Assembly (NCBI GenBank): GCA_030647115.1
Contig: JAUSJZ010000010.1
Coordinates: forward strand, 4,540-68,539
From: a bacterium
GTDB lineage: Bacteria > Patescibacteriota > UBA1384 > CAILIB01 > JAUSJZ01
Length of the DNA stretch: 64,000 nt
Reading direction: 5' to 3'
In this document: positions 39,701-44,775 of the stretch, one piece after another
Position numbering within the stretch: position 1 is the stretch's first letter
Layout: every line of letters begins with the position of its first letter
Made by a program: the position numbers and the translations under genes
Notes under the pieces: generated by a model
Database searches by the model: none
Seen by the model: only the letters and a program-made list of their open reading frames with translations
Told to the model about the DNA's origin: nothing

Positions 39701-40457
39701 CGAAACCGTCGCTAACGGTAAGAAAGTCACTATTGCTTCCATGATTGATGCCAGCGATACAGTCCAACTGGAAAAGGGTTTGACCTGGTTTGTTAATGAC
39801 GGCGATAAAGTGAGAACCGATCAACCCTTAGCTAAAAGTGAGAAGGGCCAGGTTCAGAAGGCTCCCTATGCCGGTGTAGTATCCATCAAAGACAAGAAAT
39901 TGACTATTAACGGCCAGAAAGCTTCAGTGCAAGAAGAAGTATTTGACAACACCATCCAAATATTGGTCAAGGAAGGTGAGATGGTAGGGTCCGGTGACCC
40001 ATTGACCGAAGGTAATCTAGATTTGAAACAGACCCTAGATCTGAAAGATAGACAGACCGTCGAGAATTACATCATTAATGAGATTCAGAAGATCTACACC
40101 GCCCAAGGTCAGCCGATCAATAATAAGCACATTGAGATACTGGTTAGAAAGATGCTCTGTAAGGGTCAAATTACCGACCCCGGCACTTCTAAATACATCG
40201 AAGGTGAATTGATAGATATTTTAGAGCAACTCGACGAGATTGAAAAGTACAACATCAAATACACCGAAATCTTACTCGGAATCTCTAGAGTATCCCTTAA
40301 TACCTCGAGTTTCTTATCGGCCGCTTCCTTCCAAGAAACGACCAACGTACTGATGCAAGCGGCTATCAGAGGTCAAACTGATCACTTAAAGGGGTTGAAA
40401 GAGAACGTGATTATTGGTAAGTTAATACCTGCTGGTACTGGTTACAAAAAAAGATAA
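36720..40457 (+). CDS. rpoC: RNA polymerase subunit beta'
   Basis: [10 protein letters not shown]-terminal zinc finger, [13 protein letters not shown]. Confidence 0.99.
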
Positions 40458-40870
40458 TGCCTACCATAAATCAACTAATTAGAAGACCCCGTCAGAAACC
40501 GACCGCCAAGGTCAAGGCTCCGGCTTTGAAATACGCTTACAATGCCTTCAAGCGCCGACCGGTCGATAATAAGGCCCCCCAGAAAAGAGGTGTCTGTTTG
40601 AAGGTCTACACCGTAACTCCAAAAAAACCAAACTCCGCTCTGCGTAAGGTTGCCCGTATTAGATTGTCAAATGGCCACGAAGTAACCGCCTACATCGGCG
40701 GTGAAGGTCACACCCTGCAAGAGCACTCGGTCGTTTTGGTACGGGGCGGTCGGGTAAAAGACTTACCCGGCGTGCGTTACCACGTCGTACGGGGCAAATA
40801 CGATACCACCGGTGTCGACGCCCGACGACAAGGCCGCAGTCTGTACGGAGCTAAAAAACCCAAGAAATAA
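40457..40870 (+). CDS. rpsL: 30S ribosomal protein S12
   Basis: [20 protein letters not shown]. Confidence 0.99.
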
Positions 40871-40872
40871 CC

Positions 40873-41343
40873 ATGCGCGGCAAGAGAGCCAAAAAAAGAG
40901 TTTTAATACCAGATGCCAAGTACGATTCGGTTAACGTGACCAAACTGGTTAATTACGTCATGCAACGCGGTCAGAAAAAGACAGCGGAGGTTATTGTCTA
41001 TCAGGCTTTAGAAAAAGCCGCTGCCACGACCGAAAAGAAACCGTTAGAGGTGCTCAATAAGGCCCTCGATAATGTCGGCCCGTTGTTAGAGGTACGCAGC
41101 AAGCGCATTGGTGGGGCTAACTATCAGATACCATTTGAGGTCAACCCTGATCGACGCCTCATACTAGCCTTAAGATGGATCGTTACTGCCGCCCGCAGCG
41201 GTAAAGGGGTCAAGATGTCTCAAAGACTGGCTACCGAACTACTTAACGCCTACAAGAACGAAGGTACGGCCGTTAAGAAGCGTGAAGATGCTCACCGTAT
41301 GGCCGAAGCCAACCGAGCCTTTGCTCACTTTGCCCGTCACTAA
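40873..41343 (+). CDS. rpsG: 30S ribosomal protein S7
   Basis: RIGGANYQIP, MAEANRAFAHF. Confidence 0.99.
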   Translation: MRGKRAKKRVLIPDAKYDSVNVTKLVNYVMQRGQKKTAEVIVYQALEKAAATTEKKPLEVLNKALDNVGPLLEVRSKRIGGANYQIPFEVNPDRRLILALRWIVTAARSGKGVKMSQRLATELLNAYKNEGTAVKKREDAHRMAEANRAFAHFARH

Positions 41344-41367: not shown

Positions 41368-43479
41368 ATGGTTGATAAAGTCTCCCTTGATCATGTACGC
41401 AATATAGGCATTATTGCCCATATTGACGCGGGCAAGACGACCGTGACCGAGAGAATACTGTTTTATACGGGTATTACCCATAAAATAGGGGAAGTGCACG
41501 AGGGTGAAGCTACCATGGACTGGATGGAGCAAGAACAAGAGCGTGGTATCACTATTACCGCTGCTGCCACGACCTGCTTTTGGACACCCACCTTCGGTAA
41601 CAACACCGACAACCACCGTATTAACATCATCGACACGCCCGGGCACGTTGACTTCACCATTGAGGTTCAGCGCTCGTTGCGAGTACTAGACGGGGCAGTA
41701 GTCGTCTTAGACGGTAAAATGGGCGTCGAGCCACAGACCGAGACGGTGTGGCGCCAGGCTAACGACAACAACGTACCGCGTATTATCTTTATTAACAAAA
41801 TAAACCTGCTCGGGGGCAACTTTGAACTCTGTATCGAGACAATTAATCAACGTCTGGCCAAAAATGCCCTAATTGCCGCCCTACCAATTGGTGTGGGCGA
41901 TGAGCACCGCGGGGTGGTCGATCTGGTTGAAAATATGGCTATTGTCTACGCCAACGACGAGAAGACAGAGATTAAACAAGAAGAGATACCGGCCGATTTA
42001 AAGGAGCAGGCCCATCTTTATCGCGAACGTCTAATCGAAAAAGCCGTCGAATCAGATGAAGTTCTACTCGAAAAATATCTGGAAGGCGAGGAATTAAGCA
42101 CGGCTGAAATTAGAACAGCCATTCGTAAATCAGTGCTAGCCAATGAGCTTTATCCAATTTTCGTCGGAGACGGACGCACGGCTATCGTAAAATATCTCCT
42201 TAATAATGTCGTTTCCTATCTACCGTCTCCACTAGACCTGCCTCCAGCCGTCGGTGAAGATCCAGACGACCCCGAGAAGCAGCTAGAGCGTAAACCGAGC
42301 AATGATGAGCCTTTAGCCGCCCTAGCCTTCAAAATCGCTTCGGACCCGTTTGTCGGTAAACTGACTTTTATTAGAATATACTCTGGTATTTTGAACAGCG
42401 GTTCGAACATTCTTAATGCCTCCAAAGGCGAGATAGAGCGCATCGGGCGCATCTTCCGTCTGCATGCCAACCACCGTGAAGAGGTCAAAGAAGGTGAGGC
42501 TGGTGAAATTGTCGCCGTCGTCGGTCTCAAACAGACCACTACCGGTGACACTCTGACCGACCCGAAAGCACCGCTAATTATGATGGGCATTAAGGCCACC
42601 CAATCGGTTATTTCGATGGCTATTGAACCCAAAACCAAGGCCGACCAAGAGAAACTGGGTATTGCCCTGGGTCGTCTAGCCGAAGAGGACCCGACTTTTA
42701 GAGTAAGTTCTAACGAAGAGACCGGCCAGACCATCATTGGTGGTATGGGCGAACTCCACTTAGATGTCTTGGTAGACCGCATGCGCCGCGAATTCAAGGT
42801 CGAAGCCAACGTCGGTGCTCCCCAGGTTGCCTTCAAAGAGACTATTCGTAAAGAGGTCGAACAGGAGCACAAGTATGTACGACAGTCTGGTGGTCGGGGC
42901 CAATATGGTCACGTCTACATCAGAGTCTCACCTAATGAAGTAGGTAAGGGTTTTGAATTCATTAACTCCATCGTCGGTGGAACCATACCAAAAGAGTATA
43001 TTCCAGCGGTACAGGCCGGTGTGAAAGAGGCCCTAGAACGGGGTGTTATCGCCGGGTATCCGGTCATCGATGTTAAATGCGAACTCTTTGACGGCACCTT
43101 CCACGAGGTAGACTCATCGGAAATAGCCTTTAAAATTGCCGGCTCCCTGGCTCTACAAGAGGCCGTACGCAAAGCCGACCCGGTTATACTCGAACCAATT
43201 ATGGCCGTCGAGGTCACCACACCGGAAGACTTCTTCGGTGACGTCATGGGCGACCTCAATGCCCGTCGCGGGCGCGTTAACAACACCGAAGACCGCGGTT
43301 CGGTTGGGGTTAAGGTTATACAGGCCGAGGTGCCACTGGCCTCAATGTTTGGCTACGCCACCCAATTACGTTCTATGACCCAGGGTAGAGCTAATTACGT
43401 GATGGAGTTTGCCAATTACGCCGACGTGCCCCGTCATATACAAGAAGAGTTAACTGCCGGTAAACACAAAAGCAGTTAA
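41368..43479 (+). CDS. fusA: elongation factor G (atypical G4/G5 motifs)
   Basis: [37 protein letters not shown]; str operon position. Confidence 0.98.
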
Positions 43480-43593: not shown

Positions 43594-44775
43594 ATGGCCG
43601 AGAAATTTGAACGCAGCAAACCGCACGTTAACGTAGGCACCATTGGCCACGTTGATCACGGTAAAACAACTTTAACCGCCGCCATCACCCAGGTTCTCTC
43701 TAAAGAGGGTAAGGCTAAGGCGATGAGTTTTGATCAAATCGATAACGCTCCTGAAGAGCGCGAGCGTGGTATTACCATTGCTACCACTCACTGTGAATAC
43801 GAATCTGATAAGCGTCACTACGCCCACGTCGATTGTCCCGGCCACGCCGACTATGTTAAAAATATGATTACCGGTGCCGCTCAGATGGACGCCGCTATTT
43901 TGGTTGTCTCTGCCCCTGACGGTCCAATGCCTCAAACTCGCGAGCATATCCTCTTGGCTTACCAGGTCGGTGTACCGCAAATAGTCGTTTTCTTGAATAA
44001 GGTAGATATGGTTGATGATGCAGAGCTATTAGAACTGGTAGAAATTGAGATCCGTGAATTGTTAACCAAATATCATTTCCCCGGCGATAAAACTCCTATT
44101 ATCAAAGGTTCAGCCCTTAAGGCCCTTGAAGGTGATGAGAAAGCCGGCGAAGCGATCAAAGAGTTAATTCAAGCCCTTGATGATTACGTTGTCGACCCGG
44201 TGCGTGAAATTGACAAAGACCTACTAATGCCGATTGAAGATGTCTTCTCGATCAAAGGTCGTGGCACCGTCGCTACTGGTCGTATTGAGCGCGGTCAGGT
44301 CAAAGTTAACGATGAGGTTGAGATAGTCGGTGTTAAACCGACCCGCAAGGTAATCGTTACCGGTGTAGAGATGTTTAAGAAGATGCTTGATTCCGGTCAA
44401 GCCGGTGACAACGTCGGTATTTTGCTGCGTGGTATTGAGCGAGAAGAGATTGAGCGTGGTCAGGTTTTGGCCAAACCAGGTTCAATTACCCCTCATACCG
44501 AGTACGAAGCCGAGGTTTATATCTTAAGCAAAGAAGAGGGTGGACGTCACACACCATTCTTTAAGGGCTACAAGCCGCAATTCTACGTGCGTACTACCGA
44601 TGTTACCGGTGAAGTAGAGTTGCCAGAAGGCGCCGAGATGGTTATGCCCGGTGACACCGTCAATCTAGTCATCAAGCTCATCGTCCCGATTGCTCTTGAA
44701 GATGGTATGCGCTTCGCCATCAGAGAAGGTGGTCGTACCGTCGGAGCCGGTGTAGTAACCAAAATAATCAAATAG
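43594..44775 (+). CDS. tuf: elongation factor Tu
   Basis: [22 protein letters not shown]. Confidence 0.99.

Follow-up and report, generated by a model that had tools for sequence, protein, structure and literature searches.

The Asp of the NKxD motif is among the most conserved specificity determinants in biology, and elongation factor G (EF-G) is a universal and essential GTPase. What becomes of guanine recognition, then, in an EF-G that lacks this residue? The question is raised by the fusA gene in the stretch of DNA analyzed here, 64,000 nucleotides of contig JAUSJZ010000010.1 from the Patescibacteriota bacterium assembly GCA_030647115.1 (the window), whose product has Asn for Asp in the G4 motif together with an unusual G5 loop. 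As described below, both motifs sit on one module whose phylogeny differs from that of the rest of the gene, and the altered form is a phylum-wide module exchanged between EF-G genes and not private to this genome, an aspect absent from an earlier interpretation made from the letters alone (the sequence-only reading). As to its function, we lean towards a pocket in which the guanine-reading carboxylate would have moved from G4 to G5, with GTP still the fuel.

Our re-reading of the translation matched the sequence-only reading exactly, both in its motifs (NKIN in G4, GDGRT in G5, canonical G1-G3) and in their positions (Table 1). In PMC5084732, G4 and G5 are described as the motifs that bind the guanine base. 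The consensus of the classical GTPase superclass, [NT]KxD for G4 and [ST]A[KLF] for G5, is matched by neither motif of this protein, and its G5 loop is one residue shorter than GSA[LF]KN. When aligned by HMMER with the EF-G of Thermus thermophilus, N146 is matched to the Asp of NKMD; D268 and G269 take the positions of S and A in GSAL, and after a one-residue gap R270 pairs with the next Lys. The AlphaFold2 model places a strand at residues 262-266, the loop at 267-272 and a helix at 273-284, with a predicted local distance difference test score (pLDDT) of about 90. The internal controls of the sequence-only reading, EF-Tu and IF-2 of the same window with normal G4 and G5 motifs, proved to be as claimed (NKID and VSAKK in IF-2; for EF-Tu see Table 1).

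The same reading had called for an alignment across the Candidate Phyla Radiation (CPR) to see whether NKxN and GDGR co-vary, and this they do without a single mixed state. Among the 120 best database homologues, 112 are altered (NK[IL]N with [GA]DG-R) and eight canonical (NKxD with G[ST]A[LF][KR]N). An alignment of 224 EF-Gs, composed of 119 of these 120 homologues and 105 EF-Gs from fetched loci (the 960-aa P0003, loci L001-L005 and four loci with an EF-G below 600 aa being excluded), contains 118 altered and 106 canonical rows and again no mixed one; N146 is accompanied by D268-G269-R270 in 118/118 altered rows and never by a canonical G5 (0/106). Since the same pair of states recurs in 112 of the 120 best homologues, the altered motifs are neither chance nor sequencing error.

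Columns 146, 268 and 269 fully separate the two types. Invariant among the altered rows are M118, N143, K144, N146, G149, G150, D268, G269 and R270, with Ile at 145 in 117 of 118; further discriminating columns are 147, 176, 180, 199, 202, 266 and 271-275, of which 176, 180, 199 and 202 are type-specific positions within the G' subdomain. Position 118 in canonical EF-Gs is A, G or S (N in family f39), and position 150 is Gly in all 118 altered rows vs Ala in 103 of 106 canonical ones. The family of the window EF-G departs from the majority altered form at L147, L148, V176, H180, K199, V266, T271 and A272 and keeps the invariant core. The canonical EF-Gs of family f39 (L130-L133) read NKLDAIGGD, sharing a G-G that elsewhere marks the altered type, and carry N at 118; some module-linked positions are thus not strictly tied to the Asp/Asn state.

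The altered form is widespread. A DNA pattern for FxNKINxxGG was found exactly once each in 126 of 401 genomes drawn evenly from the phylum (three hits with the reversed control), including 116 of 338 high-quality genomes and 93 of 320 genera. This number includes the window's genome and the unpublished G189 (125 of 400 without the latter) and, the pattern being strict, is a lower bound. Overall, about a third of the sampled Patescibacteria genomes have the altered form as their only EF-G. The residue after NKIN, among the matches listed for the 126, is Gln in 98 and Leu, as in the window, in 28. Closer to the window, the EF-G could be read in 29 relatives, six altered (the same-family G001 among them) and 23 canonical, including all eight examined members of f2, a family of the same order.

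All named altered-type database matches belong to Patescibacteria or CPR lineages, and the EF-Gs of 80 loci from other genomes, nearly all of other phyla, are all canonical; these loci were found by patterns from universally conserved peptides and served as canonical outgroups, 76 of them being long enough to align. In a Bacillota sample a relaxed pattern hit no more than a chance-level seven of 301 genomes vs three for the reversed control, and the five hits examined were stop-containing frames, not EF-G. The EF-G of L094, from a record titled as an uncultured Gammaproteobacteria metagenome-assembled genome, nests among canonical Patescibacteria EF-Gs in the trees, and this contig may be mis-binned. 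Full-text literature searches, which did not extend to supplements, found no published description of the altered EF-G.

To compare parts of the gene, trees were built from 90 rows (42 altered, 34 canonical Patescibacteria-like and 14 outgroups), leaving out motif columns 140-152 and 262-277. In the tree of residues 101-300 all 42 altered rows lie on one side of a branch with a support of 96.5 in the Shimodaira-Hasegawa-like approximate likelihood ratio test (SH-aLRT). The tree of residues 301-703 needs 10 changes between the types, and a grouping of the altered rows is rejected there (log-likelihood (lnL) difference 270.75; p = 0.00016 in the approximately unbiased (AU) test). In this C-terminal tree altered and canonical rows appear as close sisters, e.g. 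P0022/P0067 with a support of 99. The identity within such pairs is 0.76-0.89 over residues 1-100, about 0.55 over 101-300 and 0.80-0.86 over 301-703; same-type control pairs keep 0.78 in 101-300. In four of four altered/canonical pairs the best-fit divergent block starts at residue 145 and ends at 276-313, with a log-likelihood ratio of 29-45 vs 4-5 in same-type controls.

The edges of the module are less sharp than its core. The left one is not placeable between residues 107 and 145, a stretch conserved in all EF-Gs; because M118 is perfectly linked to type and 119-144 are too conserved to be informative, the module may start at or before residue 118. The right edge varies by gene pair from 276 to about 420. 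Two results weigh against a separate history of the module. The AU test on the whole gene does not reject a single altered clade (p = 0.77), and when sister groups of the C-terminal tree were tested in the module partition, only one of three was rejected (p = 0.0066, against 0.43 and 0.215). We read the whole-gene result as a strong module signal dominating the tree. Four origins were suggested by a quick whole-gene tree, but this free search was distrusted, as the constrained tree was better by 39.8 lnL, and the count was dropped. The module would have spread by homologous recombination between the EF-G genes of related lineages.

An instructive case is family f39, where nine genes were fetched, the four pattern-negative ones all canonical and the five pattern-positive ones all altered. 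Within its genus g82, G236 is canonical (NKLD, GTALKN) and G076 altered (NKIN, GGDGRG). The amino-acid identity of the two proteins is 0.90 over residues 1-110, drops to 0.48 over 111-300 and returns to 0.90 from 301 to the end. In 30-codon windows the identity over residues 226-285 is 0.27-0.40 at the amino-acid and 0.34-0.47 at the nucleotide level, and over residues 451-690 it is 0.97-1.00 and 0.82-0.93, respectively. The C-terminal domain of the stalk protein L7/L12 contacts the G' region. By BLAST, the L7/L12 proteins of the two genomes have an overall identity of 0.99, rising to 1.00 in the last 68 residues. Given this mosaic and the identical L7/L12 C-terminal domain, the two forms would appear to be alternative modules exchanged by recombination and serving the same ribosome.

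The fusA product is identified as an EF-G by its score and domain set, its predicted fold and the place of its gene in the operon, and it is the single housekeeping EF-G of its genome. It scores 1061.1 bits with the EF-G equivalog model TIGR00484 (cut-off 659.4; residues 1-699 covered) and has the complete five-domain Pfam set (GTP_EFTU, GTP_EFTU_D2/EF-G_D2, EFG_III, EFG_IV and EFG_C). Its best match among solved structures is the T. thermophilus EF-G 1dar_A (E = 4.8e-268), and its identity to Thermus EF-G chains is 56-60%. The AlphaFold2 model (45-sequence alignment) has a mean pLDDT of 79.8, and all 50 Foldseek matches listed for it are EF-G structures, with the top TM-score among them for 3zzu_A (TMq 0.86). 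G2 is a canonical RGITI (residues 59-63, with the switch I Thr) and, like G1 and G3, invariant in the 45-sequence alignment. The tip loop of domain IV is needed for translocation; its GGRGQYGH (residues 508-515) is aligned with an identical stretch in T. thermophilus EF-G. The assignment to a str-operon fusA in the sequence-only reading agrees with the genes on both sides (Table 1). Identity as an EF-G2 or Tet-type paralogue was considered and rejected, as all scores are far under the family cut-offs (EF-G2 NF009377, 525.5 vs 890; NF058620, 491.7 vs 1000; Tet-type NF012153, 364.4 vs 775). Relative to T. thermophilus EF-G there is an eight-residue insertion (TPTFGNNT plus flanks) between G2 and G3 (residues 73-82, 41584-41613); insertions of similar length are patchy in Patescibacteria EF-Gs of both the altered and the canonical type.

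The search for a second, canonical fusA that the sequence-only reading had proposed found none, either in the window's own genome (617 kb in 48 contigs, 86% complete) or in any of the 126 signature-bearing sampled genomes. The own-genome search returned one full-length EF-G; its four further matches comprised EF-Tu, IF-2 and, at contig ends, two fragments assigned by eye to LepA and TypA. Across the sample, EF-G was found at E ≤ 1e-60 in 393 of 401 genomes; only three of the 15 genomes with two matches are pattern-positive, and each of these has a single gene matched twice, either because contig ends split it (G155, G170) or because it lies in adjacent pieces (G319). Two side observations belong here. 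Directly upstream of the contig-end-cut open reading frame (ORF) read by eye as lepA, on contig C17 of the window's genome, is a 266-aa ORF with a LAGLIDADG_3 domain (L002 698..1498; 27 bits, E = 5.3e-06). The 2.1-Mb Patescibacteria genome G110, whose EF-G is canonical, has a second, distant EF-G-like gene of 28% identity on contig C143 (L124).

Table 1. Features of the fusA locus, with positions in the window and residue numbers of EF-G unless stated otherwise.
Feature	Position	Strand	Basis or remark
Two ORFs directly upstream of fusA, read by eye as ribosomal proteins S12 and S7	40457..40870, 40873..41343	+	str-operon context
fusA, elongation factor G, 703 aa	41368..43479	+	TIGR00484, Pfam, own-genome search
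G1 / P-loop AHIDAGKTT, residues 17-25	41416..41442	+	canonical; A17-T25 invariant in 45-sequence alignment
G3 / switch II DTPGH, residues 89-93, catalytic His93	41632..41646	+	canonical; invariant in 45-sequence alignment
Altered nucleotide-base module (G4, G' subdomain, G5), residue 118 or earlier to about 300	41719..42267	+	partition trees, divergent block, within-genus pair
M118	41719..41721	+	Met in 118/118 altered and 0/106 canonical rows (224-row alignment)
G4 N143-K144-I145-N146	41794..41805	+	codons AAC AAA ATA AAC; guanine-reading Asp replaced by Asn
G149-G150 after G4	41812..41817	+	canonical EF-Gs mostly G-A
G' subdomain, about residues 160-257	41845..42138	+	AlphaFold2 secondary structure, discriminating columns, identity profiles
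G5 loop G267-D268-G269-R270-T271	42166..42180	+	codons GGA GAC GGA CGC ACG
tuf, EF-Tu, directly downstream of fusA	43594..44775	+	canonical NKVD (135-138) and GSAL (172-175), EF-Tu numbering

How might such a pocket work? The sequence-only reading spoke of a coordinated change in two distant motifs and, from it, of a remodelled base pocket. The 224 rows support the coordinated change; that G5 gains an invariant Asp had not been seen. With NKxD changed to NKIN in G4 and S to D at the first G5 position, the carboxylate would be relocated and the factor would still be driven by GTP. We take the canonical G5 Ser to be close to the G4 Asp and to guanine at its N1/N2 edge, an arrangement for which no citable statement was found in the literature. 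D268 could then either accept the guanine N1-H and N2-H bonds directly or fix N146 so that the Asn carbonyl faces the base; the contact of a backbone NH with O6 would be preserved by G269; R270 may replace the deleted Leu/Phe as the base-stacking residue or form a salt bridge; and M118 is a likely second-shell residue, filling the space below the G4 loop. GTP is needed in the cell anyway, because the G4 Asp is kept in EF-Tu, IF-2, Obg and Der (the last two found in a genome-wide motif scan) and the genome encodes a guanylate kinase. As an invariant Asp is gained in G5 beside the one lost in G4, a compensated, guanine-reading pocket appears the more economical reading, and we consider a relocated carboxylate with GTP as the fuel somewhat more probable than its negation. 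There is precedent for its elements: PMC11594714 reports 61 of 298 GTP complexes in which N1/N2 is read by an Asp or Glu outside NKxD, as well as cation-pi stacking of Arg or Lys on the base.

Several points count against this relocation. The placement of D268 near the base is based on the alignment to canonical G5 and on general structural knowledge. Asp to Asn at this position is a classic way to switch a GTPase to xanthine nucleotides. The Ypt1 D124N mutant shifts to them and binds neither GDP nor GTP (PMC2120555). N146 is itself invariant and so should have a role of its own, which could include reading a different base, and position 6 of the purine could meet other backbone groups in the shortened, Gly-rich G5 loop. 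Finally, that close relatives interchange the modules says nothing about which fuel is used, ATP being at their disposal as well.

It is these points that give substance to another interpretation, that the rebuilt pocket changes or relaxes specificity, so that translocation in about a third of Patescibacteria runs on ATP, on any purine nucleoside triphosphate (NTP) or on xanthosine or inosine triphosphate (XTP, ITP). XTP and ITP are not normal abundant pools, which speaks against that variant. A hydrogen bond from the Asn amide to adenine N1 is conceivable, but the invariant carboxylate of D268 should suit guanine N1-H/N2-H and would be expected to repel adenine N1. The loss of the G4 Asp in 118/118 altered EF-Gs, the shift of Ypt1 from guanine to xanthine nucleotides by the same substitution at the same site (PMC2120555), the shorter Gly-rich G5 and the lack of any canonical back-up EF-G in the window's genome or the 126 signature genomes are all in line with a new fuel; set against them are the unchanged N143 and K144, the canonical state of all other GTPases seen in the genome, and the alternation of the modules in one genus with an identical L7/L12 C-terminal domain, for which the same job and the same fuel are the easiest explanation. 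We regard a changed or relaxed specificity as unlikely, if worth serious attention, and its stronger version, with a translocase open to ATP or any purine NTP in about a third of Patescibacteria and a module passed on by recombination, as distinctly doubtful. The nucleoside diphosphate kinase (NDK) was not found in the window's genome (86% complete) and is present in 39 of 41 relatives, including all six other altered-type genomes; it has no link to the altered module. In most genomes of the class (relatives G001-G040) the profile of NDK aligns as two separate segments, about 1-52 and 58-135, within one frame of 200-250 aa, which suggests an insertion in the NDK fold. The sequence-only reading had also raised insensitivity to (p)ppGpp. 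A module that keeps GTP use and makes EF-G insensitive to this or another guanine-nucleotide analogue draws on the general idea that a rebuilt pocket could shift relative affinities; yet (p)ppGpp differs from GDP and GTP at the ribose 3' position, not in the base, no RelA_SpoT domain was found in this genome at its 86% completeness, and among relatives the domain occurs in 3/7 altered-type vs 11/23 canonical-type genomes, showing no association. The idea gained no support, and we judge it highly improbable.

The remaining alternatives concern the history of the signature and its reality. It could have arisen repeatedly by convergence, each switch being followed by fast divergence of G', with no module exchange. 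Even in same-type pairs, G' does evolve faster than any other part of EF-G (0.63-0.87 identity), and in the module partition the C-terminal grouping survives two of the three pair tests. However, convergence would need the same deletion repeatedly together with at least ten invariant or near-invariant residues, the module partition still unites all altered types once the motif columns are removed, and the g82 pair is 97-100% identical over 240 C-terminal residues and only 27-40% around G5, so that we give this scenario hardly any weight. An assembly or sequencing artefact, or a decaying gene, has next to no probability at all, with a frame open for 703 codons, catalytic and ribosome-contact motifs intact, and the same states recurring in 112 of 120 best homologues and in 126 sampled genomes.

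What stands out, in any case, is a large natural group of bacteria without the NKxD Asp in their only EF-G, the loss invariably coming with a new Asp and Arg in the loop that follows. Should GTP remain the fuel, as we favor, this would be a natural experiment in rebuilding guanine specificity and a caution on motif-based assignments of proteins as GTP-specific. Otherwise a major bacterial lineage would drive translocation with a different energy currency, and if ATP or any purine NTP were accepted, these would be the first cells known with an elongation cycle partly uncoupled from the guanine-nucleotide pool. The alternation within g82, in turn, points to recombination inside a core translation gene and offers matched natural pairs for direct biochemical comparison.

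How does the window EF-G compare with known systems? With canonical bacterial EF-G (T. thermophilus 1DAR, Staphylococcus aureus 2XEX/3ZZU) it shares length, five domains, str-operon position, G1-G3, the catalytic His and GGRGQYGH. Unlike these, it has Asn in G4, a G5 of the form D-G-(gap)-R-[GT] in place of [ST]-A-[LF]-K-N, differences at M118, G150 and several G' positions, and a separate phylogeny of the module. The proposed pocket resembles the 'D/E plus' GTP-binding proteins (PMC11594714), where an acidic side chain from elsewhere accepts the N1/N2 bonds, although in the available part of that source none is reported as a translational GTPase retaining the N and K of NKxD, and the arrangement proposed here is our own inference. 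Among translational GTPases, EF-G2 (NF009377) and the ribosomal protection proteins of the Tet type (NF012153) are homologues that also have five domains, but the window gene is a sole EF-G, lies in the str operon and scores far under their cut-offs. EF-Tu D138N and Ras D119N are reportedly engineered Asp-to-Asn mutants with XTPase activity. Mutants of this class share with the window EF-G the replacement of the same NKxD residue by Asn, as described for Ypt1 D124N in PMC2120555. Those are, however, single laboratory substitutions in a pocket otherwise unchanged, with GTP binding lost, whereas the window EF-G is natural, ancient and the sole copy, and its Asn is always paired with the new G5 Asp and Arg.

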